32,000 bases of DNA from Bifidobacterium longum subsp. longum JCM 1217 (GTDB lineage: Bacteria; Actinomycetota; Actinomycetes; Actinomycetales; Bifidobacteriaceae). The first letter of the stretch is position 1. The number at the start of each line of letters is the position of its first letter. Positions 3,510 through 22,667 of the stretch are shown piece after piece. A program made the position numbers and the translations under genes. The notes below the pieces were generated by a model. It did not search any database, was not told the DNA's origin, and saw only the letters and a program-made list of their open reading frames with translations. The DNA lies in assembly GCF_000196555.1 (NCBI RefSeq), contig NC_015067.1:510001-542000 (forward strand). The letters run 5' to 3'.

Positions 3510-7547
<4,038 letters not shown>

Positions 7548-7583: not shown

Positions 7584-7609
7584 TCAGATCTTGCGTTAAT
7601 CGCAATAAG

Positions 7610-7640
7610 ATGGCCCGGAACTATATCAGTTCCGGGCCAT
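7610..7640. terminator. Bidirectional intrinsic-terminator-like hairpin between convergent rpoC and the FHA gene
   Basis: Perfect 13-bp stem ATGGCCCGGAACT (7610-7622) / AGTTCCGGGCCAT (7628-7640) with loop ATATC. It is followed by CCGTATATTT on the + strand and CTTATTGCG on the - strand. It sits between two convergent gene ends. Confidence 0.6.
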
Positions 7641-7705
7641 CCGTATATTTGCCATTGTGATTTTCCTGTTGAACAAGAGCAGGCAGCCGCTCGTTGCTTG
7701 ATTAC

Positions 7706-8338
7706 TCAAGCCTGTTTTTCGGTGAACTGGAAGAACTGGTCTCCGATACGCACCGTGGCAGGCGCGCTGAGCTTGAGCGGTGTGCCCTTGGTGACTTGTG
7801 TCTCTTGGCCATTGGTGATGATGTAGGTGCCGTTCAACGAGCCGTAGTCCTCGATCCACAGCGCGCCATCGGTGTCGATGCTGATGGCGGCATGGTTGCG
7901 GGATGTGGTGCGGGTCGGGTCTACGATACGCACCGCCTTGGCACCCTGCGGCACATCCATGGAAGGCTTGCGGCCCAGCAACGTGCTCTTATCGATCACG
8001 ATGGTCTGGCCGGTGACATCGTTATGCAGCAGGTACGTCTTCTTCGGTGCCTTGGACGTGAACGAGGAGGAGAGCACGGTGCTGTCCCAATCCTCGATGT
8101 CGTTTTCGGCGGCGTGCGGTGTGGTGTCTGCCGGAGCGGTGGCAGCGGGCTCAGCGGCGGCGGCCGTGGCGGCAGGCTCTGCGGTAAAAGCGGTATTGGT
8201 TGCCGCTTCCGCGGTACTGGGCTGCCCGTAGTCGTTCTGCGGTTCGGCTGTGCCAACTGCGGAATCCGGGGTGCCTTCCACCGGATCGTCAGAATACCAA
8301 CCCAGTTCAGGTGCTGGAGGGTAGGGAAGTTTGGCCAT
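7706..8338 (-). CDS. FHA domain-containing protein: disordered Ala/Pro/Thr-rich N-terminus plus C-terminal FHA
   Basis: The C-terminal half reads LLGRKPS...RTTSRNHAAISIDTDGALWIEDYGSLNGTYI, i.e. the canonical FHA G-R, S-x-x-H and N-G signature. An AAGGA RBS lies about 10 nt upstream of the ATG at 8338. Stop TGA (complement of 7706-7708). Confidence 0.9.
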   Translation of the reverse strand: MAKLPYPPAPELGWYSDDPVEGTPDSAVGTAEPQNDYGQPSTAEAATNTAFTAEPAATAAAAEPAATAPADTTPHAAENDIEDWDSTVLSSSFTSKAPKKTYLLHNDVTGQTIVIDKSTLLGRKPSMDVPQGAKAVRIVDPTRTTSRNHAAISIDTDGALWIEDYGSLNGTYIITNGQETQVTKGTPLKLSAPATVRIGDQFFQFTEKQA

Positions 8339-8353
8339 GATGATGCCGTCCTT

Positions 8354-8869
8354 TCACTGACGGGAAGCCAGAGCGGCGTTGATTGCCGGGTCGCCGAGCT
8401 GGCCCAGCCATTCGATCAGTGCCGGATAGGTGTTGGGATTACGTGCGATGCAGGCGCGTAGTTCAGGCGCGTACTGGGCAATCTGGGCGATTTGCATCTG
8501 GTCGGTGGTGGTCAGGGCCTGTTCGGCGGTGAAACCGTAAGGATTGGTGGCCACAGGCTCCTCGAATGCCGCCTGAGCCGCGGGCTGCTGAGCCTGTTCG
8601 GCGGCGGGCTGCTGGGCCGCCTGTGCCGTGGCTTTCTGATCCTGAACCGGGCCGCCGAATGCCTCGGCAGTGAACCCGTATTGCGCCAGGGTCTCGCGGG
8701 CGCGACCGTCACCGAACTCGGCGATCCAACGCTTCAAGCCGGGATAACAGCGCGGATTCACGGCGACATTGGCACCGAATTCCGGATTCTCGTAGGCGAT
8801 TTTTGCCAGCAGAATCGGATCCGCGTTCGGATCCTGAACGGCAGCGACCGCAGCATCATAATCAACCAT
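8354..8869 (-). CDS. Hypothetical protein with two copies of a ~45-aa helical repeat (leucine-rich-repeat-variant-like) joined by a Gln/Ala-rich linker
   Basis: Internal duplication is visible by eye. DPILLAKIAYENPEFGANVAVNPRCYPGLKRWIAEFGD matches DQMQIAQIAQYAPELRACIARNPNTYPALIEWLGQLGD, and YGFTAEAF matches YGFTAEQA. A strong AAGGAGG RBS lies 7 nt upstream of the ATG at 8869. Confidence 0.75.
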   Translation of the reverse strand: MVDYDAAVAAVQDPNADPILLAKIAYENPEFGANVAVNPRCYPGLKRWIAEFGDGRARETLAQYGFTAEAFGGPVQDQKATAQAAQQPAAEQAQQPAAQAAFEEPVATNPYGFTAEQALTTTDQMQIAQIAQYAPELRACIARNPNTYPALIEWLGQLGDPAINAALASRQ

Positions 8870-8895
8870 GGGATTACCTCCTTATGTTCGCTCGG

Positions 8896-9828
8896 TTATG
8901 CCGAACGTATGGTCCGTAGTGTTTGTAGTGTTGCGTCTTCAATGGCGCCGATATCCTCACCTTCGTCCAGCCTGAATGCGCTGAACGCATGATGTTCGGG
9001 TTCGGTCAATGGCATATCGGCCACAATCACAGTGATATTGTCGGTTCCGCCCGCATCAAGAGCGGCCGCCACCAAGGCGTCCACGGCCTCCTGCGGACTG
9101 GAATGCGCCGCGGCGATGGCCGCGATCTGTTCGTCCGGCACCTCGCCATGCAATCCATCCGAACAGATGATGAAGCGGCCGGTCAGATCGGCGACATATA
9201 CGTCGGGCATGATGCCATCCGGATCACCCAGACATTGGGTGATGATGTTGCGTGGAATGGTCGCCTCCGCCTCTTCCGGCAACATCTGCCCGGAATCGAT
9301 GGCTTCTTGGCGCTGGGAATGGTCTCGCGTGATGCGGGTCAGCGAAGCGGCGTCCCACACGGGAATGATATCCGTGGCGGGAGCATCGGCATGCGCCAAC
9401 GGACTGAGATGGTAGGTGCGGGAATCGCCGACATTGACCACATAGGTCTGGTCCGAGAAGTCCTGATCATCGGCGTCACTGAACAAAGCAGCGCTGCGGG
9501 CGCTGGCGGAATCCGCATGATCTTGGGGCAGTACCAAACCGGAGCAGGTTGTGCCGGCCACGCCGCCAAGGCGGTCTCCCAGATCGAGAATGTCGTGCTG
9601 GGCCCGTGCCAAGGTGTCGTCGATATCCTGACGGGTGCGTGAAGGCATGGCGGCCAATTGTGCGAAATGCTGGGCAGCCAACTGGCTTGCCTGCTCGCCG
9701 CCTTTGCCGCCGCCCATGCCGTCACAGACCATGAACACGCCTTGTTGCGCGAATCCGGTGTCTTGGTTGTTTTTGCGCCTAAGACCCACGTCACTGGTCA
9801 TCGCGATACGGATGGAGCCTGTGGTCAT
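8896..9828 (-). CDS. PP2C-family Ser/Thr protein phosphatase (cytoplasmic, no TM segment)
   Basis: PP2C motifs are present: SDVGLRRKNNQD, FMVCDGMGGGKGGEQAS, ICSDGL and GGTDNITVIV. The start ATG overlaps the upstream gene's stop as ATGA (9825-9828). Confidence 0.92.
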   Translation of the reverse strand: MTTGSIRIAMTSDVGLRRKNNQDTGFAQQGVFMVCDGMGGGKGGEQASQLAAQHFAQLAAMPSRTRQDIDDTLARAQHDILDLGDRLGGVAGTTCSGLVLPQDHADSASARSAALFSDADDQDFSDQTYVVNVGDSRTYHLSPLAHADAPATDIIPVWDAASLTRITRDHSQRQEAIDSGQMLPEEAEATIPRNIITQCLGDPDGIMPDVYVADLTGRFIICSDGLHGEVPDEQIAAIAAAHSSPQEAVDALVAAALDAGGTDNITVIVADMPLTEPEHHAFSAFRLDEGEDIGAIEDATLQTLRTIRSA

Positions 9829-12338
9829 GACGCCTTCCCCTTCTTACGCGTGCGCTTGACATGCGTCGTGTGCGGCTTTGCTGCGTGCCCATTTGACAGT
9901 ATAGCCACGCTTTTCAGGGAAAGTCGTGTACGTATCCTCCTGAAACGCGGCAAAGAAGCGAGCATTGCCTTGCGTAATTGGTCGACTCCTGTCCAATATG
10001 TGGTGGCTTGGCCCGATTCAATGTCTTGCCCCGAGAACGTGGCGTAGTCGGCTTCCCGGCCAAGCTGGATCAAAGCCTGGTCATCTGTGCCGAGTTGACG
10101 GGCGATGGCACCGGCCTGATCTCGACGAGTGCCCTTGGCTGTGATGCCGCTTTGCTCGGCAAGCATGCGTATGGCATTCCAACCTGCTGCCACACGGGTT
10201 TTCGGACTGCCGTGTCGCCGCGCTCGTGCCAGCAGTATGGCCTTGAACATCAGAATCAGACCGCAGGCGATGAGTAGGGTCCACAATGGGCTGCCGTACA
10301 GGGCCACCTTGCGGGTCACTCGCCAGAACCGCGCCCAGAACAGGTTGGTCGGCGAATCATCGGCGTCGGCGCCGGCCAATGAGCTTTGGCCCTTGGCTTG
10401 CGTCTGATCGCGCAGCGGATCGGTCAACGGCACTGGTGGTTGCCGGACCAGCGTCTGCGGATTCGGCGGCGTCAGGTTCTGGTTTTCATCAGGCATCTTG
10501 GTCTCCTTGGGCGTCGGATAGAACGCCACCCATCCCAGGCCCTGCAATTTGATTTCCACCCAAGCGGTGACATCGTTGCCGGTGAATTCGATTTTGGTGC
10601 CATTGCCTGAGGTCTTCTCCGTGCGGGCATCGGTGATTTCGCCATCCTCGTTTTTCGGCAGGAAGCCCAGGACCACACGGGAGGGCAGTCCCAGATCACG
10701 AGCCATCAGTGCCATGGCGGAGGCATATTGCTCGGAGTCGCCCACCATGGCCGTGCCTGCCAGCAGCTTGTTGATGCGGTAGTTGCCATGGCCGGCATCG
10801 GAGGGATAGTCGCCTTCAAGTCCATGAGAGAACCATCCGGAGTCTTTCAATGTGTCGGCCAACGCCGTGGCTGCGGCACCGCCCGAGGACTGCCCGCCGG
10901 CAATGGACGTGGCCAGTTTGCTGGCCGAATCGGGAACATCCTGGGCTTCTGGTTGGGTGATGCGGGCCGCAGCCGCACTGCTGATCTGCTTATCGGTGGG
11001 ATTACGGGCGATAATGCCGGATTCGGTATAGGTGAGGCCTTTACGCGTGCCGGCGGGAATAATGGCGGAATCGGTATCCGTGTTGTAGTAAAACGTGTCA
11101 TTGCCGTTGTCGGCATCGTTGGCGAAGCTCACGCCAGTGGCCGCTCCCGCCAGCGGCAGCCAGGTGTCGGTCAGTCCCTGATCGACGGTGAAGGTCGCAG
11201 TGAAGGATTTACCCTGCTCATCCGCCTTGATCGTGGTGCCCACGCGATGATAATTCGAGGAGTCCGTGGCTTCGGAAGAATCGGACAGGTTCCATACTGT
11301 GCCATCGAATCGATCCATCACCGCAAGTTTGACCGGTGTTCCGGCCGGCAGATTATGAACGGTCAGCAACACGTCTTTTTTGTGGTCCTTGATATAGGAT
11401 CGCATGCCGCTGAGCGGGCTGGTGTAATCGTAGGGGCTTAACGGCGGATCGTAGCGGTCACGCAGCACGAAACGGTCCTGTGGCACCAGCAACGTGCCCC
11501 CGAAAGCAAGGCCGGCAGCGAGCACGACGATGATCAGCGCGGATATCCAGCGCCCCCATTCCAGCAGTTCAAGACGCCAAGACAGCCAGATAATCAGCAG
11601 CAAGGCAAAGGCAATACCGCAGATGGCGCGTTGCCAGCCGCTGTCTGTGCCCAGCAGGGCACATACGGCCACGGCCGCCGCAAGGGGCAGCACTCCCACC
11701 AGAGACAACCATGCGTTGGCATTAATGGCAAACACGCCGGTGAAGAACGTAAGCCACAGGCCGATGGTCCATACCGCCATCAGCACGCCGTCTTGCGTGC
11801 CCAGAGGCGGATCGACGGAAATAATGTACTTGAACGAGCCAAACGTCATTTCCCAACCTGAACTCAAGGTCTTCAAGGTGGGAATCACGTAATGGGACGT
11901 AGTGGAACTCAGCGTTACCACCGGGCCGATGATGAATTGGGCAAACGCCAGAAACACGATTTGCCACCACAGTCGCAACGCCGGCAACATGCCCGCCAGA
12001 GCGATGATCGCGCCCAGCAAGGTGGCCGGTACAGCGGCAATCGCCCAAGTGGCCACGCCGCCGTACACGTCGATGAGATTGGCTTGCGCCAGCAACATCA
12101 TCGCCGCTATGAGTACGAGGCTGGCGATTCGTTTGCCCCACGGCTGGCGACTGAGGCCCATGCCGCGAAGCACATTGCCTCTGGTCATCCAGATAACCGA
12201 ATGTGTGGAGTCGGCCCAGGAGCCGGTGGTGGTGGAGGTCCCGGTGTACGTGCCGGAGGAAGTGCCGGTGTATGTGCCGCTCGATCCGGCGTACGCAGCG
12301 GTATTGGTATTGGTGATACTGGACTGGTCGAAGGTCAT
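9825..12338 (-). CDS. Transglutaminase-fold polytopic membrane protein (TgpA/YebA-like architecture, DUF4129-like C-terminal tail); catalytic triad apparently substituted
   Basis: 837 aa. The order is a Thr/Ser-rich N-terminal tail, about 6 hydrophobic helices and a large soluble domain with the transglutaminase-core signature GDSEQYASAMALMARDLGLPSRVVLGF...VTAWVEIKLQGLGWVAFYPTP. A further TM helix and a basic cytoplasmic tail follow. The start overlaps the DUF58 stop as ATGA (12335-12338). Confidence 0.85.
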   Translation of the reverse strand: MTFDQSSITNTNTAAYAGSSGTYTGTSSGTYTGTSTTTGSWADSTHSVIWMTRGNVLRGMGLSRQPWGKRIASLVLIAAMMLLAQANLIDVYGGVATWAIAAVPATLLGAIIALAGMLPALRLWWQIVFLAFAQFIIGPVVTLSSTTSHYVIPTLKTLSSGWEMTFGSFKYIISVDPPLGTQDGVLMAVWTIGLWLTFFTGVFAINANAWLSLVGVLPLAAAVAVCALLGTDSGWQRAICGIAFALLLIIWLSWRLELLEWGRWISALIIVVLAAGLAFGGTLLVPQDRFVLRDRYDPPLSPYDYTSPLSGMRSYIKDHKKDVLLTVHNLPAGTPVKLAVMDRFDGTVWNLSDSSEATDSSNYHRVGTTIKADEQGKSFTATFTVDQGLTDTWLPLAGAATGVSFANDADNGNDTFYYNTDTDSAIIPAGTRKGLTYTESGIIARNPTDKQISSAAAARITQPEAQDVPDSASKLATSIAGGQSSGGAAATALADTLKDSGWFSHGLEGDYPSDAGHGNYRINKLLAGTAMVGDSEQYASAMALMARDLGLPSRVVLGFLPKNEDGEITDARTEKTSGNGTKIEFTGNDVTAWVEIKLQGLGWVAFYPTPKETKMPDENQNLTPPNPQTLVRQPPVPLTDPLRDQTQAKGQSSLAGADADDSPTNLFWARFWRVTRKVALYGSPLWTLLIACGLILMFKAILLARARRHGSPKTRVAAGWNAIRMLAEQSGITAKGTRRDQAGAIARQLGTDDQALIQLGREADYATFSGQDIESGQATTYWTGVDQLRKAMLASLPRFRRIRTRLSLKSVAILSNGHAAKPHTTHVKRTRKKGKAS
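12237..12284 (-). repeat. 2 x 24-bp in-frame tandem repeat encoding SSGTYTGT SSGTYTGT
   Basis: The N-terminus reads ...AYAG SSGTYTGT SSGTYTGT STTTGSW. About half of the first 41 residues are Ser/Thr. Confidence 0.8.
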
Positions 12339-13558
12339 GCGAGCACCCCCATGATCAGCGGGAGATCATCGAGGTCGCCGATGGTGGCCAATGTGAAGTT
12401 GGCGAATCTTCTGATGCCGCGATTGGCGCCGGCGCTGGCCTGCAATACCACGCAGCTGGCCGATCGGGGCAAGGCCAAGGTCATGCGCTTGATTTGCTCG
12501 ATGTCTTTCAGCGATCCAACAGTGAAAAAATAGAACGAAGCATCAGGACTGTGCTTCAGCGTGCCCTCGGCGAGATTCGGATTATCCTCACGATCAGGCT
12601 CTATGGCACTGGCGTTGTCGAGGAACTCCATGGCGTTGCGCGGCTGGCCGTGCGCGTTGCCCGCGTGGCAGAACAATGGACGATCCTGCAGCAGGCATTT
12701 GACGCCGATGGAGGAGTGGATGGACACCGCCATCTCGAATTCCTCGCCGTTGACGTATTCGTCCGGGTTCACGCTGATGGTCACCGAGGTGTCGGTGCGG
12801 CGCGTGGCCTCATATTGGCGAATCATCAACGTGCCGGTTTTCGCGGAGCTCAGCCAGTGGACGTTACGCACGTCGTCGCCCGGCTCGTATTCGCGCAATC
12901 CGTAGAAGTCGAGATCATCATCCACGATCTGGCCGGATGGTTGGCCTTCCAGGTCGCGGGGCACGCCGGCATTCAGAGTATCGAGACGCACGGTACGAGG
13001 GTGGATGAATACGGTGATGCGGTCGGCCAGCTCCTTTTCGTGACGCACCAGACCGAACGGGTCTCCCTTGCGGATGCGCAATGGGCCGATGGGCAGTATT
13101 GCGCGCGATACGGTACGGAACTCCACATCGGTTTGCTTGGATTGCCCGGGAGCCAGCATGGGGATGTTGAATCGTTCATGCGCATCGCCGATTGGCAGAT
13201 ATCCGCGTGCCGTGGTCGTCGGCGTTCTGCCGGTGTTGTCGATGCCGACGATAACGGATACGGTGTCTCCCACGGTCACGCGATGATTGGATACGACGAT
13301 GGACGCGTGGAAGCGTGTGTTGCCGAGGGAAAGCACGATTGCCGCGAGCATCATCACCATCGCCACGATGCCGAATACGAGCAGCTCATACCAGCCCAGA
13401 AACGGGAACGCAATAAGGCATGCGATGCCTGCGCCCGTTACCGCCCAGCCCAAGGGCGAGACGTAGGATGCGAAGAACCGTCTGATGCGTCTTACCGCGC
13501 GCTTGAACATGCGTTCAGCGCGCCGGCGACGGCGTAATGCGGCGGATGTAGATGCCAT
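12335..13558 (-). CDS. DUF58 domain-containing protein (vWA-like MoxR partner) with two N-terminal TM helices
   Basis: DUF58 signature DFYGLREYEPGDDVRNVHWLSSAKTGTLMIRQYE. The N-terminus is Arg-rich, followed by two hydrophobic helices. A GGAAAGG RBS lies upstream of the ATG at 13558. Confidence 0.9.
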   Translation of the reverse strand: MASTSAALRRRRRAERMFKRAVRRIRRFFASYVSPLGWAVTGAGIACLIAFPFLGWYELLVFGIVAMVMMLAAIVLSLGNTRFHASIVVSNHRVTVGDTVSVIVGIDNTGRTPTTTARGYLPIGDAHERFNIPMLAPGQSKQTDVEFRTVSRAILPIGPLRIRKGDPFGLVRHEKELADRITVFIHPRTVRLDTLNAGVPRDLEGQPSGQIVDDDLDFYGLREYEPGDDVRNVHWLSSAKTGTLMIRQYEATRRTDTSVTISVNPDEYVNGEEFEMAVSIHSSIGVKCLLQDRPLFCHAGNAHGQPRNAMEFLDNASAIEPDREDNPNLAEGTLKHSPDASFYFFTVGSLKDIEQIKRMTLALPRSASCVVLQASAGANRGIRRFANFTLATIGDLDDLPLIMGVLA

Positions 13559-13582
13559 GGTCGGATACCTTTCCGGGCCCTA

Positions 13583-14956
13583 TCAGGAACCGATGGTGGG
13601 GGAGGGAACGTCTTCGAGCACCTGTGCGATCAGGCTTTCCGGAGTCGCGCCATCGAAGGTGGCTTCCGGAGTCAGCGTGATACGGTGTGCGAGCACGGCC
13701 ACTGCAAGGTCCTTGACGTCATCCGGCACCACGTAGGCACGGCCATCGGCCGCGGCCCAGATACGGGCGCATCGGGTCAGTGCCAAAGCGCCACGCATGG
13801 AGGAGCCGACCGTGATCTTCTCGTTGTGGCGGGTCGCCTCGACGAGCCTGACGATGTATTCACGAATCGCATTATCCACATAGATTTCGGTGGCCACCTG
13901 ACGCAGCCGCATGACATCGTCACCGCTCAGCACCGGGGAAATGGTCTGCGCACGGTCGGTGATATCGACCTGCTTGAGGATATCGACGGACACATCATGG
14001 CCCGGGTAGCCGATTGACGTCTTGATAAGGAATCGGTCCATCTGCGCCTCAGGCAGCTTATAGGTACCGAGCTGCTCGATGGGGTTCTGGGTTGCAATCA
14101 CGATAAACGGCTGCGGCACATCATGTGTGACGCCGTCAACGGTGACTTTCTGCTCTTCCATAACCTCCAGAAGTGCGGACTGCGTCTTCGGCGATGCACG
14201 GTTGATCTCATCGGCCAGCACGATGGAGGCGAAAATCGGGCCTTCGCGGAACTCAAATTCTCCGCGCTTCTGATCGTAGAAAGTCACACCCACCACATCC
14301 GAAGGCAGCAGATCGGGCGTGAACTGAACACGCTTGAAACCGGTGGAAATGGAATTGGCCAAGCCTCGGGCCAACTGGGTCTTACCGGTGCCGGGGTTGT
14401 CTTCAAGCAGAATATGGCCACCGACCATCAGTGCGGTGACGCATTGCTTGATAGGGATGGTCTTGCCGATAACCACCTTGGAGACATTTTCGACCAGCGC
14501 ATTGAAGGACTGCTGGAAATCCCGGACCTGAGCCGTGGGCTGGGGCAGTAGTCCGGAATTGATGCTGGCGGGCAGTGCCGATGCGGCTGCTTGCGCGGCT
14601 TTGCTCGACTGACGCTGCGGCTGTGATTGCGGCTGGGATTGCGCGGTGGCCTGCTGCGGGATGGCTGGCGTCGATCCCTTGCGCGGCTTGAGCACGGTGC
14701 TGTCATCGCCCGCAGGAATGGAGGCGGCATCAGTAGTAGGAGACGGCTTTTCTGACGGCGCTTGTGACGGCCGCTGCGGCAGGTTAGGCAGCGCAACGGA
14801 CTGCGGCGCCGACTCGGTGCTTGGGGTCGTGCCGGTGTGTGGTGCGGATGCCAGGTGCGTGGCGTCGGACAAGTGCGTGCTGTCGGATAGCTGCGTGCTG
14901 TCGGACAGACGGGTCGTGTCAGACAACTGCGTCGCGTCATCGATGTTCTCGCTCAT
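13583..14956 (-). CDS. MoxR-family AAA+ ATPase with a ~170-aa low-complexity Ser/Thr/Gln/Pro-rich N-terminal extension
   Basis: Walker A LLEDNPGTGKTQLA and Walker B IVLADEINRASPKTQSALLEVMEE, with MoxR-like context throughout. I place the start at ATG 14956 (MSENIDD...), not the track's 15298. A GGAGAA RBS lies 6 nt upstream, and this ATG is 10 nt past the upstream gene's stop. The longer ORF would overlap that gene by about 330 nt. Confidence 0.9.
   Translation of the reverse strand: MSENIDDATQLSDTTRLSDSTQLSDSTHLSDATHLASAPHTGTTPSTESAPQSVALPNLPQRPSQAPSEKPSPTTDAASIPAGDDSTVLKPRKGSTPAIPQQATAQSQPQSQPQRQSSKAAQAAASALPASINSGLLPQPTAQVRDFQQSFNALVENVSKVVIGKTIPIKQCVTALMVGGHILLEDNPGTGKTQLARGLANSISTGFKRVQFTPDLLPSDVVGVTFYDQKRGEFEFREGPIFASIVLADEINRASPKTQSALLEVMEEQKVTVDGVTHDVPQPFIVIATQNPIEQLGTYKLPEAQMDRFLIKTSIGYPGHDVSVDILKQVDITDRAQTISPVLSGDDVMRLRQVATEIYVDNAIREYIVRLVEATRHNEKITVGSSMRGALALTRCARIWAAADGRAYVVPDDVKDLAVAVLAHRITLTPEATFDGATPESLIAQVLEDVPSPTIGS
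14846..14935 (-). repeat. 5 x 18-bp in-frame tandem repeat encoding the hexapeptides ATQLSD TTRLSD STQLSD STHLSD ATHLAS
   Basis: The repeat is visible in the DNA (tgtcggacaagtgcgtgc / tgtcggatagctgcgtgc / tgtcggacagacgggtcg ...) and in residues 8-37 of the MoxR protein. Confidence 0.85.
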
Positions 14957-14966
14957 GGATGTTCTC

Positions 14967-17900
14967 CTACTGCTTGTGAATGGTGGTTGACGATATTGGG
15001 GTATTGCCGAAACCAAGAATCCAGGGGTTCTTGGCCAAAGTGGTGACATCGGTACCGGATTTGAGCGACTTGGTCCCCTCCGAGGAGTCAGAGGGACGTG
15101 TGCCCGCGACGCTGCCTCCGTCCGCAGTGTTGTCGAGACCGGAGTATCCCGGCCCGCCGGTGACTTTGACGCTCCACGCGTAGTTGCCATCGGCGGCCAC
15201 GGCCAAGTCGGTGACATCCAATGGCTGGCCGGAGTTCCACGTGAACGGTTGGCCATTGATGATGATTTGTACAGTGGCCGACTTGCCATAGACATCAACC
15301 GAACCGCCGGTGACGTTAATGACGTGAGCGTTGTCTGACCAGCGCAGCTCCTGCGGTTTGTTGATTACAGCCTTCTTCTCATAGGTGTAAGGAGCGCCAT
15401 TGTGCGGGCCTCCGGTGACGGCGTCGCTGGTAGCGCCGTTGAACACCTGTTGCACCGATGCGGTGTTGCATTTGGCCCAAGGACTCATTCGGAAGTCGAG
15501 TGAGTTCCGGTTAGTAGCTGTACCGGAATCGATGCCATCGGCAGTCACGCTGTAGGACTGCGCATGTCCCTGCTTGGTCCAATGCACGGTGCATGTACTG
15601 CCGGATCCGGTGGTGTAGACGTCAGTGGGCGGCTGGACCTTGTACTGCGGGACAAAGCTGCTCTTGCCCGTGCCGGAGGAAGCATCGCGCTGCGGCACCA
15701 CGGTGGCCGTTACGGTGATTTCCCGGGTGTTCAAATCGTTCTCATTGATATCGAACGTAGCGCCACTGTCACTGCAATCGATGGTGTCCTTGACGTCTCC
15801 TCCCAAGGAAATTCGCCGGCAGCCGGCATTGCGGTTATTGCCGAGAGTGACTTTCGCCGTTACCGTGGTGTCGTCGTTCGACAACGCAATGTTCGGCGCA
15901 TCCGGGTCTCCCCAGATCTTCTCTGACGGCGATGCGGCGGACTCGGCACTCCAATTGATTTTGTTATGGGCTTTGACGGTCGCCGTAATGGCGGTGCCAT
16001 CGGAAATGTCGTTGTTGTTGAACGTAAACGACAGCTCGGTGGCCGTATTGCCGGTTTCCTTGGTCTGCGGAGCACCTGCACCGGTGACGGTCACTGAATA
16101 GTTGTCGACGGCGCTGAAATCACCGCTCGGCGCTTTCCACGTCACCCTGGCGGTTTTATTGCCACCTGTGATCGTAACATCGGTGGGAGCGGACGGCACC
16201 TTGTCCGGTGTGGCTTCGACGGCGGTGGACGGCTTGGACCAGCCGACGTCATTTCGCGCGGCGACGGTGAAGGAATAGGTTTTGCCGTTCTTCAGACCAG
16301 TGACCTGGCATGAGGTGACGGCACCGCAATCCTTCTCTCCGGTGACGGCACCGGTCCAACTGACCTTGTAGTTGGTGATCGGGCTGCCATTGGCGGCACC
16401 GGGCGTCCATGTGAGGCTGACCGCGCTGTCCTGCGGTTCCCCGGCTACGGGGGAGAGCAGTGGCGGCTCGGGCTTGTCGATCACGGACACGGTAATCGAT
16501 GCGGTGACTTCACGATCCTTGGACTTGGTGCCGTCTTGCACGGTGACGAGCACGGTGTTCGTGGAAGCACCTACATCGGATGCGACGGCGATGGTGATGT
16601 TTCCGGAGGCATCGCATCCGGCGATGGTGAGTTTGGCGGCGTCATCCGCCTTGCAGCTGATGACGGTCAGCGAGGAATCGGGGAACGGATTGTACGCGCC
16701 GGTAAGCACGTTCACGGCATCGCTGGCACCGGCCTTGATCTTCAACGTCTTGTCGCCGACGCGTGTCAGCGGACGGGTCGAAGACACTACGCGCACGGTC
16801 ACACCGGCATTCACGGTGCCCGCGCCGTATGCGATTTGCACGGGAACGGACGCGGTGGTGCCAGGAGCGGCATCCTTGGTGGCGGAAACCTGCAAGCTAC
16901 CGGAACGGGACAGGTTTGCGGTGATTTGCCTGGATGATGAGCTTCCACCGGAATACGTGTATTGCTTTTCGTCGTCATACACGCCGGACGGTGCATGGGT
17001 GAGCGCCGTCAGATCAACGGTCTTGGGGTCCGCGCCCGCCTCGACATCAATAGTGGAGGACGAGAACGTGGGCGGCGGCACATCGCGGCCTATCACCGTG
17101 ATCTGGAGAGTGATCACTGCGGAATTGATGATCTTGGTCTTATCCGATCCCTGCTTGCCATCCACAGCGGTAAAGGTAATGGAGGCGGGGCCTGCGTAGT
17201 CTTTTGCCGCAGTGAACTTCAGGGTCTTGTCGTTCACGTAGAAATCGGAGTTGGAAGCCTTGGTGGCGCTGACGGAATCAGCGCTTTCGATATACGGTTC
17301 CTTGCCGGCGCCGACGCGGACATAGTCATTGATGTTGATTTCAATGGTCTCGCGCGAGTTGACCTTCAATTCCGGTGCCTTGGGACGCAGCGTGGGCGGA
17401 AAGACACCATAGGCCGGTACCTGGATGAACGCGGTGGAGGTGATGTTGTATTTCGTATTGGTCACCGTGTAAGGCACGGCTCGCGCCTGTGACGTCAGGT
17501 CGACGGTGATGGTGGTCGAATGCTCGCCGCCCTTGACGTGAGCGTGAGCGCTGGCGGAGGGATGCACGCCGACCTTGAGCTCATTGGCTGTGCCGGAAGG
17601 ATTGGCGATCCACTGGGAAACATCCACATCCACGGACTTCTTATCGATGGTGGCGGCGGACGGCACACGATAGTCGTAGGCGGTAGGCGGCTCGATGGCG
17701 GCACTCGGATCCACGTTTACCGTGAGGGTGGCCGTATCGGACAAGCCGGCCTTGTCTTTGACCGTGTAGGCGATATAGTCGGTGGTGGCGCTGTCGGGCG
17801 TGGTGAAGGAGAGCATATTGTCTTTCACGCTCACCCCGTCGAGACCTTGGACCTCGACATGCTTGTCGACGGTCAGATTGGTGTTGTCGCCGGAGATGTC

Positions 17901-20900
17901 GTTCTGCGCGACCGGCACGGTTGCGGCCGTATTGGGCCTCAACGTGATTTCGTCATCCCTGGCGTATACGCCGGAGTCGGACGATCCTTGGAATACGCCC
18001 ACGCGGATCTGCGCCTGTGCGCGCTGACCGGTCCAATCCTCCACGGCATAGGAGAAGGTGTCGGTGCCGGACGAATCCGGATACGCTTCATAGACCAAGT
18101 AGTCGGAACCGACTTCGGATATGCGGCCCAGCGTGGGTGCCTTGTTGCCCAGACCCAACAGCTGATTGTCGTCGCCATCCGTGTCTATGCCGGTCAGTGT
18201 GATGGGGATGCGGACCTTCTGCCCGGCGGCAACCTGCGCTTCGGCGTCATGCGGGGTTGGCGCGGCCTTGCTCGCTGCGTCGCTCTTATGCACGGTAATG
18301 GTGATATTGGCGGAAGCCACATTACCCAGATTGTCTTCAACCGTATAGGTGATGGGGAAGTTGCCGGTCTCGCTGGATGCTTGGTAGCGGACCGTGTCTC
18401 CAGAGACGAAGGCCAGACCCTTGAACGTCCCCTTGTCGTATTGCAGGTTGTTCTTGAGTTTGACCGTGGTGCCATCCGAGTAGGCCACATGGTCAAGCAC
18501 ATCCACGGACACGATGCCGTCGGTACGCACCTGGGCATTGATATTGCTGGCCTTGGGCACTGAATTCGAGGTGGCCAGAGCCGGCGGCTGCAACACGATG
18601 GTGCCCTTGGCGGTTCCGGAGGCGTTGGCCACGGTGTAGGTAAGGGCGACGGGCTTCGTGGGCACCTGACGCGCGGTGATATACACGCGCTTATGGCTGA
18701 CGAGACCAACCTTGATGCCGGAGTCGGCCGGTGCGCTCACCGTGGTGACGGACAGCACACCGCCCATCGGATCGACGTCATTGGTGAGCGGCTCCACAAT
18801 GGCGGTATTATCCGCGCCAAGCAGGGCGACATCGTTGGCGGCAACCGGTTTGGCGGCCTCGCCGGTGGCGGGCTGCACCTCGACTCGAGCCAATCCGGTG
18901 GCCGGAATCGAACCTTGAGTAATGATGTAGGGCACATAATAGGTGCCGGGATTGGTGGCCTTGAACGTCAACGACATATCCGCCGCATTGGTGGTCGTCG
19001 AAGCGCCGTTGGGCGTATCCACCTGAGTCAGTTGTGCCGGCTGCAAGGAAGTGCCATGCACATAAGAGGACAGCTTGACGACGGTATCCGTGTTGGGAAC
19101 GGTGGTTTTCGCTACCGGGTCGATGACCGCGGCCAAGGTGTTCGCGGGCTTGACCGAGAAATACACCATGCCGGTGCCGGTTGCCGTGCCGTCGGAGACG
19201 GTGACCTCGACGCCCACACGTCCCGACGCCAGCGCACCGGTGTTGAACGTAAGCTGGCCGTCGGCTCGGGTGGACACCTGCACCTGGTCGGTGTTCTGGG
19301 CCACAGCGGAGACCAGAGTGAGCGGGTCTCCATCCGGATCGTTGAAGCTGCTCAGCGCATTGGCGGTATAACTGGCTCCCTGCTCCACATCGATCTCGGG
19401 AGGAGTGTCGAACTGTACGGGAGCGTGGTTGCCTCCATCATTCAGGGTTACGGTCACCGTGGCGGAAGAGGTCTGGCCGCGACCATCGGAAATATCGTAA
19501 GTAAAGGTAACGGTGCCTGCGGATGCGGCGGAGGCATCGAGTTGCAGATACCGGCCGTCGTAAATCGGCGAAATGGTGACGTCTTTGTTGTTTGGTGCGC
19601 CAACCTTGGTGATTTTCAGTACGGAACAATCGGTCTGCTCGTCATTGCGCAGCGCGTCGAGAATCTGTTCCGAACCGGCTCGTGCGCCGATTTCATCATC
19701 CTCGGCTTTGATTTGGCCGGATTGTGCGGAACAGGTCTTGGAGAAGTCGTGGTGGTTGTTGGCCGAGTCGTTGTTCTGCTGTTCTTTCTCGGTCTGCTCG
19801 GTCTGTATTTTGTTCCACTGTATTTTGATGACTTTGGTGGAATCCTCAGGGTTCCACACATTGCCGTTAACCGTGTCGTTGAGCACCACAAGGCGATGGT
19901 TGGTGCGGAACACCAATTCGGAAGTAGTATTGACGGATTCGAGGGTTTGCGGCTTGACGCTGGTATCCGTGGGGGAGCAGGCGCGAATGTAGTTGCTGGC
20001 CTTCTGGCTCCAAGCCGAGTACACGCAGCCCTTGGACGATACCGGTCGTGCCGGATTCGCCTTGCCCCCGTTGGCTATGAAATTCGCCTTGGCATTGGAC
20101 TTCAACGGGATAAGCGCAAGGCCTCTCGGTGATGCCGCGGCCACCCAATCGGACTGTATGTCATCGGTGGGAGGCTCCTGAAGGGTGAGGGTGCCGGTCG
20201 TGTCGACATCGACGCGGCCGCCCTTGAATATGACGGTTTTGCCGGTTGCGATTACCGGCGTGCTCCCGATGACGGTAAAGCTTTCAACGGTCTGCTGCTT
20301 GCCGTCGGTCAGCGATTCGAGGGTTTTGACGTTGGCGCTGCTGGGATTGTCAAGACGCAGCACCATACCGTCGGATGGACGGTATCCGTAGACTTTGCCA
20401 TCGTGGGTTACTGCGATGCGCCCGCCCTCGCCCAGCTTTATTTTCGGATCGGAAGTGGTGGGGGTCACGGAATCAAGGTTTTCCGACAAGCCGGTCCACA
20501 CATTGCCGGTCTTCTCGTTGATCAGGGCTGCGGTATCCCCGCCGACCACAGTGGTGGTGCTGGCTTTGATGTCGGTCTTGACACCGGTGCTGACCGTGGA
20601 TGCCTTGATGGTGGAGGCTTTGGTCGTTTCGGTCAGGATGGTGTCGCCATTATGCTGTGCGATGTCGAATCGTGGGGCGGAGGAGGAGACGCCGGCGTCG
20701 GCCTCCTTGTTCTTTACGTTGAATCGTGCGGCCTTCTGGTTTTTCAGCGAAGTGACCCATACGGTGCCATCGTCCAGTTGCACATGGCGGCGCGTGACGG
20801 TGCTCATGATCACCGCGCCGGCAACAAGTCCCAGAAGCAGCAGGAGCGTGATTACGGGAACCGTCCACGTATGCCCTCCGGAGGGCATAAGGCGGCGCAA

Positions 20901-20951
20901 AGCCGCGCTGATGCGTCGGCGACGATCGTATGACTGGGACGATGTGGCCAT
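14967..20951 (-). CDS. Giant (1994 aa) N-terminally membrane-anchored surface protein with a beta-rich head, ~11 cadherin/Ig-like repeats and 4-5 fibronectin type III modules
   Basis: A short Arg-rich cytoplasmic tail precedes one TM helix (WTVPVITLLLLLGLVAGAVIMSTV, about 20796-20867). About 350 aa of beta-rich sequence follow. Then come ~95-aa repeats with cadherin-like acidic motifs (FNDPDGDPLTLVS, LTNDVDPMGGVLSV, GIDTDGDDNQLL), each ending in ...TVTV/ITV. Next are Fn3 modules (SLTWTPGAANGSPITNYKVSW...GKTYSFTVAARNDVGWS; ARVTWKAPSG...YSVTV). No LPXTG motif is present. A GGGAG RBS lies 5 nt upstream of the ATG at 20951. Confidence 0.88.
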   Translation of the reverse strand: MATSSQSYDRRRRISAALRRLMPSGGHTWTVPVITLLLLLGLVAGAVIMSTVTRRHVQLDDGTVWVTSLKNQKAARFNVKNKEADAGVSSSAPRFDIAQHNGDTILTETTKASTIKASTVSTGVKTDIKASTTTVVGGDTAALINEKTGNVWTGLSENLDSVTPTTSDPKIKLGEGGRIAVTHDGKVYGYRPSDGMVLRLDNPSSANVKTLESLTDGKQQTVESFTVIGSTPVIATGKTVIFKGGRVDVDTTGTLTLQEPPTDDIQSDWVAAASPRGLALIPLKSNAKANFIANGGKANPARPVSSKGCVYSAWSQKASNYIRACSPTDTSVKPQTLESVNTTSELVFRTNHRLVVLNDTVNGNVWNPEDSTKVIKIQWNKIQTEQTEKEQQNNDSANNHHDFSKTCSAQSGQIKAEDDEIGARAGSEQILDALRNDEQTDCSVLKITKVGAPNNKDVTISPIYDGRYLQLDASAASAGTVTFTYDISDGRGQTSSATVTVTLNDGGNHAPVQFDTPPEIDVEQGASYTANALSSFNDPDGDPLTLVSAVAQNTDQVQVSTRADGQLTFNTGALASGRVGVEVTVSDGTATGTGMVYFSVKPANTLAAVIDPVAKTTVPNTDTVVKLSSYVHGTSLQPAQLTQVDTPNGASTTTNAADMSLTFKATNPGTYYVPYIITQGSIPATGLARVEVQPATGEAAKPVAANDVALLGADNTAIVEPLTNDVDPMGGVLSVTTVSAPADSGIKVGLVSHKRVYITARQVPTKPVALTYTVANASGTAKGTIVLQPPALATSNSVPKASNINAQVRTDGIVSVDVLDHVAYSDGTTVKLKNNLQYDKGTFKGLAFVSGDTVRYQASSETGNFPITYTVEDNLGNVASANITITVHKSDAASKAAPTPHDAEAQVAAGQKVRIPITLTGIDTDGDDNQLLGLGNKAPTLGRISEVGSDYLVYEAYPDSSGTDTFSYAVEDWTGQRAQAQIRVGVFQGSSDSGVYARDDEITLRPNTAATVPVAQNDISGDNTNLTVDKHVEVQGLDGVSVKDNMLSFTTPDSATTDYIAYTVKDKAGLSDTATLTVNVDPSAAIEPPTAYDYRVPSAATIDKKSVDVDVSQWIANPSGTANELKVGVHPSASAHAHVKGGEHSTTITVDLTSQARAVPYTVTNTKYNITSTAFIQVPAYGVFPPTLRPKAPELKVNSRETIEININDYVRVGAGKEPYIESADSVSATKASNSDFYVNDKTLKFTAAKDYAGPASITFTAVDGKQGSDKTKIINSAVITLQITVIGRDVPPPTFSSSTIDVEAGADPKTVDLTALTHAPSGVYDDEKQYTYSGGSSSSRQITANLSRSGSLQVSATKDAAPGTTASVPVQIAYGAGTVNAGVTVRVVSSTRPLTRVGDKTLKIKAGASDAVNVLTGAYNPFPDSSLTVISCKADDAAKLTIAGCDASGNITIAVASDVGASTNTVLVTVQDGTKSKDREVTASITVSVIDKPEPPLLSPVAGEPQDSAVSLTWTPGAANGSPITNYKVSWTGAVTGEKDCGAVTSCQVTGLKNGKTYSFTVAARNDVGWSKPSTAVEATPDKVPSAPTDVTITGGNKTARVTWKAPSGDFSAVDNYSVTVTGAGAPQTKETGNTATELSFTFNNNDISDGTAITATVKAHNKINWSAESAASPSEKIWGDPDAPNIALSNDDTTVTAKVTLGNNRNAGCRRISLGGDVKDTIDCSDSGATFDINENDLNTREITVTATVVPQRDASSGTGKSSFVPQYKVQPPTDVYTTGSGSTCTVHWTKQGHAQSYSVTADGIDSGTATNRNSLDFRMSPWAKCNTASVQQVFNGATSDAVTGGPHNGAPYTYEKKAVINKPQELRWSDNAHVINVTGGSVDVYGKSATVQIIINGQPFTWNSGQPLDVTDLAVAADGNYAWSVKVTGGPGYSGLDNTADGGSVAGTRPSDSSEGTKSLKSGTDVTTLAKNPWILGFGNTPISSTTIHKQ

Positions 20952-21117
20952 CTGAACTCCCTGACCCCTGTTTTCTCTGGTTGCTGGTGTAATGACAACG
21001 CTTTACGGTTCCAATACCTGCCGTTCCTGTTGTCCATTTGGTGAATTCGCCGCTGCTGGGCGCACGTCTGATGCGATACGCAATGCCAGGGTGGCATGCC
21101 CGGCAGTGGCGAGCGGA

Positions 21118-22539
21118 TCATTCTTGCGGCTTGGCCGCACAGGCGATGGCGGGGCTGACGGACATCTGGCGGTTCTTGCGCACAATGGACACCTGAATGC
21201 AGGTCTGCGAGCCTTCCTGCGCGTTGACGGTCACCGTGGGATCTGACGTTGTGACGGTTTGCGCGCTCTGGTCGGTATTGCTGCCCTGCACTATGGCCCA
21301 CGCATAGGTATCACCGCTTTGCGGGTCTGGATTCGTCCAGGTGAACGTCACGGATGACCCATCCGCCGCATAGGTGCCGTTCAGATTCTCCGGGGAAGGA
21401 ATCTGGGCGTTCGCGGTATCGGTGATCACGTCATCCTGATTATTGCGGTTGTTGTCATCATCCTTGGTGCCGGGCGTCGCCACCTGTTTGGTATCTGATC
21501 CGGTGGCGCTGTCCATGCGGGGAACGACCACGAAGGCGAATATCAGTGCCGCTGCGGTGATCGCCGCAAGTATACCGACGGTAATACCCACCGGTTTGAC
21601 CCATCGCCGTGACGAACGGGTGATCTGATCTCGCTGGTCCGTGGCCCGGCGCCGACGCTCGATGTCTTTGGGATAGGCCGGCATCCCTTCCACGGTAACG
21701 GGAGTGGCATGCCCGAAATATGCGAATTGCACACGCTGCATGGCACGTGCGAACTCCAACGCGGAGTAGTACCGCTGGTCGGGGTCCTTGTTCAGGGCCC
21801 GGCGCAGCACCGCTTCCACATCGGCCGGCACGTCGGGGCGGTTGAGGCGAGGCAATGGCTGGTTGACGATCAGCGAAATCAGTTCCGATTGCGAACGCGG
21901 GTGATAATCGTGCTGGAATGGCGAGCAGCCGACGAACATGGCGTACAGGGTGGCCGCCAGTGAATAGATGTCGGCGGCTTCCGAACCATTGGTCAGATGC
22001 TGAAGCACTTCAGGCGGTGCCCACGGCGGCGAGAATCCGGTTTCGGTACGGTCATACACATCGGTGGAGATACCGAAATCACCCAGAACAGGCAAGCCCT
22101 GCGAGGTGATGAGAATGTTGCTGGGCTTGATGTCGTGATGGATGATATTGCTGCGATGCGCGGTGAACAGCGCGCTTGACAGCTTGATGCCGAGGTCGAG
22201 TACCTGCTCGCAGGTCATGGACCGGGCCTTCATGATGCTGTTGTAGGTGCCGCCCGGCGCATATTCGATGACGATGTAGCCATGGCCATCGGAGGTGACG
22301 CCGGCACCATATACCGGCAGAATGTACGGGTGGGATGACAGCTTGGCCATGAAGTTGGCCTCGCGGTTGAACAGGGCAGCGGCCCGTGGGTCAAGGGTTT
22401 TGGCGCTGGCCTTTACCGCCACCGGGCGTGCGGGCATACGCTGGTTATATAGGTACACCGTGGCGGTGGCACCGCTTCCCAACATCTGGACGAAATCATA
22501 TCCGGGCAGCTTCGGCGGTCTCATCGGAATGTTGTCCAT
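21118..22539 (-). CDS. Hanks-type Ser/Thr protein kinase, single-pass membrane protein with an extracellular Fn3-like domain
   Basis: Kinase motifs are present: LGSGATATVY, VAVKA, IIHHDIKPSNILI, DFGIS and WAPPE. The TM helix is VGITVGILAAITAAALIFAFVVV. The C-terminal ectodomain reads SVTFTWTNPDPQSGDTYAWAIV...CIQVSIV. I prefer the start at ATG 22539 (MDNIPMRPP...) because AAGGAGGGAGGG lies just upstream; the track's 22578 start has no RBS. Confidence 0.9.
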   Translation of the reverse strand: MDNIPMRPPKLPGYDFVQMLGSGATATVYLYNQRMPARPVAVKASAKTLDPRAAALFNREANFMAKLSSHPYILPVYGAGVTSDGHGYIVIEYAPGGTYNSIMKARSMTCEQVLDLGIKLSSALFTAHRSNIIHHDIKPSNILITSQGLPVLGDFGISTDVYDRTETGFSPPWAPPEVLQHLTNGSEAADIYSLAATLYAMFVGCSPFQHDYHPRSQSELISLIVNQPLPRLNRPDVPADVEAVLRRALNKDPDQRYYSALEFARAMQRVQFAYFGHATPVTVEGMPAYPKDIERRRRATDQRDQITRSSRRWVKPVGITVGILAAITAAALIFAFVVVPRMDSATGSDTKQVATPGTKDDDNNRNNQDDVITDTANAQIPSPENLNGTYAADGSSVTFTWTNPDPQSGDTYAWAIVQGSNTDQSAQTVTTSDPTVTVNAQEGSQTCIQVSIVRKNRQMSVSPAIACAAKPQE

Positions 22540-22667
22540 CTGTTCCCTCCCTCCTTGGAAAATGCGCTCTCCCTGCATTCGTTCTACAGGATACCGTCAA
22601 GGGTACGATTCTTCGTCGGGTTCGGTAAAATTTTTCCCTCTGTGACGGTCGGGTTTAGGCTGGAGCC
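22540..22667. promoter_or_regulatory. Divergent intergenic region expected to hold promoters for the kinase operon (-) and the helicase-nuclease pair (+)
   Basis: This is a 128-nt gap between divergent starts. There is a TAAAAT -10-like hexamer at 22626-22631 (+ strand, 37 nt before the ATG at 22668). There is a TTGACG -35-like hexamer on the - strand (complement of 22595-22600). Neither has a convincing partner hexamer. Confidence 0.3.

Follow-up and report, generated by a model that had tools for sequence, protein, structure and literature searches.

The gene cluster analysed here occupies positions 7706–22539 of a 32,000-nucleotide stretch of the Bifidobacterium longum subsp. longum JCM 1217 genome (NC_015067.1, positions 510,001 to 542,000; this whole stretch is the window), and resembles two systems that have been described under different names. 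The first is the PFNA operon of bifidobacteria, a locus named since 2018 (Nezametdinova, Dyachkova, Danilenko et al.; PMC8430577, PMC6803598, PMC10688814, PMC12607495). It comprises a core, pkb2-fn3-aaa-atp-duf58-tgm, followed by prpC, the hypothetical gene BLGT_RS02790 and fha (PMC8430577, 2021 review), and this eight-gene form is specific to B. longum (PMC8430577, PMC6803598). In B. longum GT15 the eight genes are co-transcribed, with a main transcription start site (TSS) 40–41 nt upstream of the pkb2 start and a second one upstream of prpC, and a terminator was placed in silico ‘within 65 bp’ downstream of the fha stop codon (PMC8430577). In vitro, the kinase Pkb2 autophosphorylates and has 12 substrates, among them the MoxR ATPase, and an FN3 fragment binds tumour necrosis factor alpha (TNF-alpha; PMC8430577).

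The second system is the epibiont sensing and response (Esr) pathway of Schaalia odontolytica (Wang ... Mougous, bioRxiv, 9 September 2026; PMC13622651). Its giant protein EsrA has a Sec signal, an N-terminal WD40-class beta-propeller and 14 immunoglobulin (Ig)-like repeats, without an LPXTG motif, and is accompanied by a MoxR ATPase, a vWA protein, the predicted transglutaminase EsrD, the kinase EsrE, the phosphatase EsrF and the FHA protein EsrG. Once esrA1 is deleted, neither the proteome nor the transcriptome responds to the Saccharibacteria epibiont TM7-008. In an esrD1 deletion mutant EsrA1 shows the greatest release of all proteins into the supernatant, and EsrD was proposed to link EsrA covalently to the cell surface. 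Thr152, in a disordered region of EsrG1, is the sole infection-dependent phosphosite, and T152A blocks the transcriptional response. All 3502 Esr loci reported belong to the class Actinomycetes, most of them to GTDB Actinomycetales and Propionibacteriales; about 40% of the loci adjoin esx genes, and some carry EsrG–EccC fusions (all PMC13622651).

The locus in the window is the PFNA operon of B. longum, already published, and we consider it, with a probability of roughly 0.6, to be the bifidobacterial member of an Actinomycetota-wide, Esr-type surface sensing pathway. Each of the eight proteins matches a B. longum protein exactly (e.g. BAJ66077, BAJ66079, BAJ66081 and BAJ66082 of JCM 1217), the giant protein being identical to the ‘putative adhesin’ BAJ66082.1. 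Species, the eight genes, their order and orientation, the position of the terminator and the motifs of the two Fn3 domains are those of PFNA, and nothing differs at the sequence level: WSKPS and WSAES in the giant protein correspond to WS-PS in the first domain and WS-ES in the second, the combination that the motif table of PMC8430577 gives for B. longum. A sequence-only reading of this DNA had described eight head-to-tail genes on one strand, and their order and domains are confirmed by the open reading frame (ORF) scan, which places all eight on the minus strand, and by Pfam and NCBIfam searches. Its intergenic spacers (166, 10, 24, -4, -4, 26 and 15 nt) were recovered exactly when recomputed from the gene coordinates, and its operon reading is right, co-transcription having been published for strain GT15 (PMC8430577). 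It had also known of no functional description of the combined set, and in this it was mistaken: the PFNA papers are an existing experimental characterization of this exact gene set (PMC8430577, PMC6803598), and the homologous Esr pathway has been dissected genetically (PMC13622651). The finding is correct and already known, under the two names PFNA and Esr. No paper linking PFNA and Esr was found, and the two literatures do not cite each other.

Contrary to the PFNA papers, which regard the cluster as unique to bifidobacteria, it also occurs elsewhere. We used DUF58 as anchor of a survey, as its position lets a 10-kb flank cover the whole cluster. A first search with DUF58 listed Bifidobacterium only, a match of 34% identity still being bifidobacterial (B. 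ramosum), and an exhaustive HMMER search of representative sequences (437 clusters at E<1e-30) was needed to reach the sister group. A 17-sequence alignment of the more distant full-length matches served as profile for a scan of loci, and its matches lie in Subtercola, Herbiconiux, Actinotalea, Oerskovia, Sanguibacter, Cellulosimicrobium, Arthrobacter, Citricoccus, Isoptericola, Georgenia and others. Sanguibacter antarcticus, Subtercola boreus and Arthrobacter sp. JZ12 each encode a ~2000-aa Big_9/cadherin/fn3 protein, a MoxR ATPase, a DUF58 protein and a TgpA_N/Transglut_core protein in the same order, with kinase and FHA genes nearby in each case; two of the three also have a PP2C gene there. 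The genome scan gave 80 further loci in Micrococcales and Propionibacteriales, including Nocardioides and Aeromicrobium. All stop-to-stop ORFs of the survey loci were searched with the window proteins, and counts refer to the 62 loci with full 10-kb flanks. On the anchor strand, the giant protein, MoxR and the transglutaminase (TGase)-like protein are present in 62/62, the kinase in 61, the FHA protein in 57 and PP2C in 49; the non-repeat N-terminal domain of the giant protein is recognizable in 55 and the kinase ectodomain in 47. The co-conservation check proposed by the sequence-only reading places the cluster far beyond close relatives.

Two arrangements recur among these loci, giant-MoxR-DUF58-TGase-FHA-PP2C-(FHA)-kinase and (FHA-PP2C-)kinase-giant-MoxR-DUF58-TGase-(FHA). 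Because the signalling module keeps its association with the core while changing sides of it, this argues for functional coupling of the two rather than chance adjacency, and we judge that the earlier reading was right to couple the Thr-phosphorylation module to the MoxR/DUF58/TGase-fold module and the giant surface protein. The same observation weighs on the view that the locus is a housekeeping envelope module, in which a TgpA/YebA-like trio matures wall or membrane proteins, the giant protein is an adhesin substrate and the kinase module, a general regulator of growth, is a neighbour by chance. As this view would have it, trios of MoxR, DUF58 and TGase genes occur widely beyond Actinomycetota (background knowledge; Wong and Houry, cited in PMC6803598), and the cluster adjoins rpoBC in several bifidobacteria. 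Yet kinase, FHA and PP2C genes stay with the trio and the giant gene in nearly every locus although they move upstream or downstream of the core, PFNA is missing from 15 of 86 Bifidobacterium species (PMC8430577) and hence is not essential, and the TGase fold has no nucleophile (see below). With a nucleophile-free fold and a cluster that is not universal in the genus, the housekeeping TgpA-type reading was rejected as highly improbable.

In 43 of the 83 non-Bifidobacterium loci, a gene for a ~1500-aa protein with FHA, Yop-YscD_cpl and FtsK/SpoIIIE domains (an EccC/EssC-like type VII secretion ATPase, its FHA part N-terminal) starts within 10 kb; nothing comparable to this FHA–FtsK gene lies within the B. 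longum window. In many of the Micrococcales and Propionibacteriales loci the EccC/EssC-like gene stands after the kinase module, for example at 20146–21488 in survey locus L002 and 20113–21383 in L003. The survey independently reproduces both the taxonomic range of Esr and its Esx/EccC linkage.

The giant protein (fn3/EsrA-like, 14967–20951, minus strand, 1994 aa) has an N-terminal signal anchor (transmembrane residues 31–49), a beta-propeller-like domain at about residues 60–400, at least 12 Ig-like repeats recognized by Big_9 and cadherin-like Pfam matches (Big_9 seven times, Cadherin_5 three times), two Fn3 domains and a C-terminal region of about 300 residues. Inspection of the translation found no LPXTG at its C-terminus. 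An AlphaFold 2 (AF2) model of residues 45–440, built on 19 bifidobacterial homologs, has an all-beta core of about 200 residues (~130–335) with a predicted local distance difference test score (pLDDT) above 80 and low-confidence ends. The PDB matches listed for it are almost all beta-propeller domains (designed Pizza propellers, the sensor domain of Mycobacterium tuberculosis PknD, hemopexin, Kelch, WD40 and YWTD), with Foldseek probabilities of ~1.0 and TM-scores of 0.3–0.48. With moderate confidence the model suggests that the giant protein carries the N-terminal beta-propeller of an EsrA.

The two ends of this protein differ in conservation. Of 86 loci, 67 have a recognizable N-terminal domain, with E-values as low as 1e-136 in Bifidobacterium and 1e-52 in other genera. 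For the last ~300 residues (1691–1994, window 14967–15881) no homolog was detected in the 83 non-Bifidobacterium loci. A single locus among the 86, a Bifidobacterium metagenome contig, has one; it is one of the three other Bifidobacterium loci. A word-index search with the N-terminal 441 residues returned close bifidobacterial fragments only and was uninformative on distribution. The giant protein combines a conserved propeller-like base with a hypervariable C-terminal tip. An Arg cluster before the membrane helix, TRRH after it and no small-residue cleavage motif make the signal anchor look uncleaved, which would place the propeller close to the membrane and the variable C-terminus away from it.

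The PFNA authors place cytokine binding in the C-terminal part of the giant protein and propose a host-cytokine sensor and adhesin, in which Fn3 domains mimic cytokine receptors and Pkb2 and Tgm sense immune signals in a species-specific dialogue with the host. In vitro, cytokines including TNF-alpha are bound by recombinant fragments of FN3, PFNA genes of B. longum GT15 were expressed more strongly after treatment with TNF-alpha, and FN3 contributes to the adhesion of B. bifidum S17 (PMC8430577, PMC10688814, PMC12607495). The WSKPS and WSAES motifs, the hypervariability of the C-terminal region between species and the positive selection that has been reported (PMC6803598) also agree with this proposal. 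However, the same cluster, its giant protein, kinase ectodomain and TGase-like protein recognizably homologous, is found in soil, plant, marine and sediment Micrococcales and Propionibacteriales, free-living actinomycetes that have no animal host, so that cytokine sensing cannot be what the cluster did ancestrally or does in general. Binding was measured in cell-free assays on fragments, the PFNA papers cited here report no B. longum mutant phenotype, and motifs resembling WSxWS are structural elements that many Fn3 domains share. As the function of the operon, cytokine sensing is in our view unlikely; the variable tip could still serve cytokine binding as a secondary, lineage-specific use.

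The TGase-fold protein (tgm/EsrD-like, 9825–12338, minus strand, 837 aa) is a TgpA-type polytopic membrane protein that matches Transglut_core at 1e-16. By hydropathy it has a polytopic N-terminus and one late transmembrane helix. A phmmer search of the PDB with Tgm gives a weak match to TgpA (E 0.77), which was used for the alignment of motifs only and is backed by the Pfam match. In this alignment the catalytic residues C404, H448 and D464 of TgpA (6g49) fall on S535, T591 and Y607 of Tgm, in the motifs GDSEQYA, VTAWVE and FYPTP (window 10518–10736). Three further Bifidobacterium species have Ser, Thr or Glu, and Tyr at these positions. In none of 82 survey orthologs does Cys occupy the nucleophile position, which holds Asp, Glu, Ala or Gln instead; the His and Asp positions frequently retain their residues, and most Micrococcales orthologs read Asp/His/Asp. 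The catalytic Cys is absent in all 86 family members examined (an 83-sequence alignment and the three further Bifidobacterium species), and no column of the 83-sequence alignment reaches 20% Cys. The only Cys residues of B. longum Tgm, at positions 226, 240 and 692, lie within or beside predicted membrane helices, and the ectodomain is Cys-free.

Since Ser-Thr-Tyr replaces Cys-His-Asp and the ectodomain has no Cys, Tgm, as judged from its sequence, cannot be the Cys protease or transglutaminase that the PFNA papers assume, and most likely would act as a non-covalent anchor or scaffold. Non-covalent docking of the giant protein on a TGase-fold ectodomain would account just as well for the appearance of EsrA1 in the supernatant of the esrD1 mutant, and if Schaalia EsrD is similar to Tgm, the proposed covalent attachment of EsrA needs another explanation. 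Tgm has a conserved cytoplasmic C-terminal tail. Its N-terminal tail, Thr-rich, predicted to be cytoplasmic and situated beside the first membrane helix, contains SSGTYTGT twice, encoded by a 24-bp tandem repeat of 1.9 copies at the 5' end of tgm (12234–12279, minus strand).

The kinase (pkb2/EsrE-like, 21118–22539, minus strand, 473 aa, Pkinase 1e-37) has a cytoplasmic kinase domain with VAVK, HHDIKPSN and DFG motifs, a single transmembrane helix (residues 321–339) and an ectodomain of about 130 residues that ends in an Fn3-like beta-sandwich. Its ATG at 22539 is preceded by AAGGAGGGAGGG, a strong Shine–Dalgarno sequence, and gives the 473-aa form found in public databases; a longer ORF from 22578 (486 aa) is not the database form and was set aside. 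The ectodomain has no Pfam match. A single-sequence AF2 model of it (pLDDT 66) resembles fibronectin type III domains with TM-scores of 0.6–0.74, and the Fn3-like ectodomain announced by the sequence-only reading is supported at modest confidence. A homotypic pairing of this domain with the filament was dropped, because the best BLASTP match between the kinase ectodomain and the giant protein (E 0.17) is not significant.

That earlier reading gave the kinase ectodomain the role of sensor, and supposed that phospho-Thr marks, read by the FHA protein and erased by PP2C, gate MoxR/DUF58 remodelling of the complex of Tgm and the giant protein, as PpkA-PppA-Fha1 does for the H1 type VI secretion system (T6SS). 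The Fn3-like character of the ectodomain, the Thr-rich repeat tails on B. longum MoxR and Tgm, and the phosphorylation of the MoxR ATPase by Pkb2 in vitro (PMC8430577) speak for it. In Schaalia, the only genetically dissected homolog, the sensor is instead the giant protein EsrA, whose deletion abolishes kinase-dependent phosphorylation, and the FHA protein is itself the phospho-acceptor and the output rather than a reader that gates MoxR (PMC13622651). Furthermore, the kinase ectodomain is homologous in 47 of 62 Micrococcales and Propionibacteriales loci whereas the tip of the giant protein varies, and an ectodomain conserved across orders is more easily reconciled with an internal partner that is itself conserved than with an external ligand that varies. 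Phosphorylation of MoxR stands as an in vitro result for Pkb2, but Schaalia genetics do not support it as the general route, and the N-terminal extension that carries the Thr-rich repeats is missing from Micrococcales MoxR orthologs, so that MoxR phosphorylation is not a general mechanism. We regard a sensory kinase ectodomain acting in this way as improbable. A T6SS-type reading as such was rejected, since the window holds no secretion genes.

The MoxR-family AAA+ ATPase (aaa-atp, 13583–14956, minus strand, 457 aa, AAA_3 7e-64, AAA_lid_2) has Walker A (GTGKT) and Walker B (LADEINR) motifs. Its N-terminal extension of ~150 residues is rich in Thr, Ser, Gln and Pro and includes five T[QRH]LSD hexapeptide repeats, encoded by an 18-bp tandem repeat of 4.3 copies (14856–14932, minus strand); in three annotated neighbourhoods the Micrococcales orthologs, of 323–330 aa, have no such extension. 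The DNA repeat, being repetitive, may vary in length among strains. In line with the reported phosphorylation of MoxR in vitro, the T[QRH]LSD array and the SSGTYTGT tail of Tgm are plausible candidates for Pkb2 phospho-acceptor sites or FHA-docking arrays. The gene that adjoins moxR encodes the DUF58 protein, of a vWA-like family (duf58, 12335–13558, minus strand, 407 aa, Pfam DUF58), with two N-terminal transmembrane helices and a soluble part predicted to be cytoplasmic. No transmembrane helix was found by the simple hydropathy scan in the MoxR, PP2C, LRV_2 and FHA proteins.

The PP2C phosphatase (prpC/EsrF-like, 8896–9828, minus strand, 310 aa) matches Pfam PP2C and the NCBIfam Stp1/IreP-type family (3e-43) and has intact metal-binding motifs (RKNNQD, DGMGG, DGL and GGTDN). 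The FHA protein (fha/EsrG-like, 7706–8338, minus strand, 210 aa; Pfam FHA 4e-9, NCBIfam FhaB-like 8e-7) consists of a disordered, low-complexity, Thr-containing N-terminal region of ~100 residues and an FHA domain that keeps the phospho-Thr-binding residues (GR, SxxH, NG). Between them, the BLGT_RS02790-like gene (8354–8869, minus strand, 171 aa) encodes two helical-repeat domains (LRV_2 twice, 9e-40) joined by a Gln/Ala-rich linker; its homologs are present in two Bifidobacterium loci, L084 and L085, and in none of the 83 other loci, and it is an accessory gene, seen in Bifidobacterium loci only. In B. bohemicum and B. choerinum the rpoC-adjacent fha (L084 15893–16492, L085 16702–17487) is opposite in strand to the rest of PFNA, and the gene at the prpC position has no Pfam PP2C match. 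Given the flipped fha and the gene without a PP2C match, the tail end of the cluster is rearranged within the genus.

Put together, these properties are best accounted for by an Esr-type relay, the best-supported reading of the locus (probability about 0.6). A filament of ~2000 residues would be held in the membrane by its N-terminal signal anchor, with the conserved propeller base beside the Cys-free TGase-fold ectodomain of Tgm and the Fn3-like ectodomain of Pkb2, and with the hypervariable tip projecting through the wall to contact a variable external ligand. Engagement of the ligand would be relayed to Pkb2 via the membrane complex, which cytoplasmic MoxR/DUF58 may assemble or reset. Pkb2 would then phosphorylate Thr-rich disordered tails (the N-terminal ones of Fha and Tgm and the N-terminal hexapeptide repeats of MoxR), the FHA domain would read the phospho-Thr marks, PrpC would erase them, and the output would be a change in gene expression or in the state of the envelope. 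A bolder proposal, to which we give slightly less than even odds, is that PFNA and Esr are one ancient system, that B. longum uses it as a contact or threat sensor for other microbes, be they epibionts, phage or competitors, and not primarily as a host-cytokine receptor, that a Cys-free pseudoenzyme holds the filament non-covalently and that the hypervariable C-terminal tip, and not the conserved propeller base, recognizes the ligand. If true, a TGase-fold component that is Cys-free and holds its partner non-covalently runs contrary to the assumption of both the PFNA and the Esr literatures.

The eight genes are real and form a single operon. Their compact spacing, the ATGA overlaps of tgm with both of its neighbours and the one terminal hairpin are consistent with a single polycistronic transcript. 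The hairpin that the sequence-only reading had placed at 7610–7640 was found at 7609–7641 (no strand assigned), 65 nt 3' of the fha stop codon, with a folding energy of -34 kcal/mol (z = -7.8 against shuffled sequence) and a stem of 14 pairs by scan or 16 by RNA folding. Its U-tract is weak on the strand of the cluster (CUUAUU), and the better T-tract is on the plus strand, on the rpoC side (CGTATATTTG). As the hairpin lies between rpoC, which ends at 7547, and the convergent fha, it is probably bidirectional and would end both the highly expressed rpoBC operon and PFNA. The cluster is flanked by rpoB/rpoC on this side and by adnA/adnB-like helicase-nuclease genes, divergent from it, on the other. 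The intergenic region between pkb2 and the adnA-like gene (22540–22667, minus strand for the operon) would hold the operon promoter, the published TSS of strain GT15 mapping to about 22579–22580. A scan for consensus sigma-70 promoters gave 6 sites against 5.8 in shuffled sequences, no excess, and no promoter call is based on it. The two UvrD-helicase/PD-(D/E)XK nuclease genes (AdnA/AdnB-like, 22668–31009, plus strand) have longest ORFs of 1437 and 1411 aa that overlap by ~200 nt, and the true start of the second is therefore probably further downstream.

The additions of this analysis are modest: the recognition of PFNA as Esr, the non-uniqueness of the cluster, the Cys-free TGase fold, and the conserved base and variable tip of the giant protein. 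Their residual value is corrective and integrative. The claimed specificity of the cluster for Bifidobacterium is wrong, and a ‘transglutaminase’ unable to work as a Cys enzyme changes how the anchoring of the giant sensor should be tested. A link between the PFNA and Esr literatures would open Esr genetics and phosphoproteomics to those who work on bifidobacteria, and the operon mapping and kinase–substrate data of B. longum to the Esr authors. Whether host cytokines or microbial antagonists are the signal of the operon matters in practice, B. longum being a major infant-gut commensal and a probiotic.

Several other systems share parts of this architecture. The MoxR-vWA-beta-propeller ternary conflict systems (Kaur, Burroughs, Iyer, Aravind 2020; PMC7159879) likewise combine a MoxR ATPase, a vWA-type partner, a beta-propeller sensor and kinase and FHA signalling domains, and B. 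longum MoxR scores above the cutoff of Pfam bpMoxR (33 bits against 27), its AAA_3 score being 214 bits. B. longum differs in that its propeller forms the base of an extracellular filament of 2000 residues and is no cytoplasmic sensor, in that its vWA partner is a DUF58 protein anchored in the membrane, and in having a TgpA-like membrane protein. Pfam and NCBIfam searches found no toxin, caspase-type or other effector domains in the eight proteins, and Esr clusters were, according to the Esr authors, not captured in that study (PMC13622651). The TgpA trio of Pseudomonas aeruginosa and YeaC-YeaD-YebA of Bacillus subtilis have the same three-gene order, and TgpA shares with Tgm a polytopic N-terminus (TgpA_N matches in the orthologs), an extracytoplasmic TGase core, a C-terminal transmembrane helix and a cytoplasmic tail. 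They differ in that the triad is replaced in B. longum and is Asp/His/Asp in most Micrococcales orthologs, and in that the subfamily of the window is associated both with a giant surface protein and with a kinase/PP2C/FHA module. PpkA-PppA-Fha1 of the P. aeruginosa H1-T6SS resembles the locus as a membrane Hanks-type kinase, a PP2C phosphatase and an FHA protein that control an envelope machine, and FHA–EssC/EccC control of the type VII secretion system (T7SS) resembles it through the FHA module fused or adjacent to EccC in relatives; as no T6SS or T7SS genes lie in the window, these are analogies and not memberships.

Assignment to Esr has its own difficulties, and the following points weigh against it. 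It rests on architecture, on taxonomic range and on Esx linkage in relatives, the S. odontolytica proteins being compared by description, and the main text of the preprint names neither Bifidobacterium nor PFNA (PMC13622651). No esx genes flank the B. longum cluster in the window, although this linkage is not obligatory in Esr; the B. longum FHA protein has no counterpart of the EsrG1 pseudophosphatase domain; and B. longum has an LRV_2 gene that is absent from Esr loci elsewhere. The propeller model is partly confident, with a mean pLDDT of 57 against more than 80 in the core and TM-scores at the values given above (0.3–0.48). The preprint counts the propeller among the most diverse elements of Esr, whereas here the C-terminal tip is far more variable, and the FN3 binding data concern cytokines only. 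The ~150-aa Thr-rich extension of B. longum MoxR is a further difference.

On the other side stand the likenesses between PFNA and Esr. Both systems have a giant Sec-dependent filament without LPXTG, with an N-terminal beta-propeller and Ig-like repeats (~14 in Esr), an adjacent pair of MoxR and vWA (DUF58) proteins and a membrane TGase-like protein, the transglutaminase fold of EsrD being matched by the Transglut_core domain of Tgm even though Tgm is without the catalytic triad. GTDB Actinomycetales includes both the Bifidobacteriaceae and the NCBI Micrococcales; with the Propionibacteriales added, the taxonomic range of the two coincides, as does the frequent EccC/Esx linkage in relatives. 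Finally, both join to this surface machinery a Ser/Thr kinase, a PP2C phosphatase and an FHA protein, one region of which is disordered and bears Thr.

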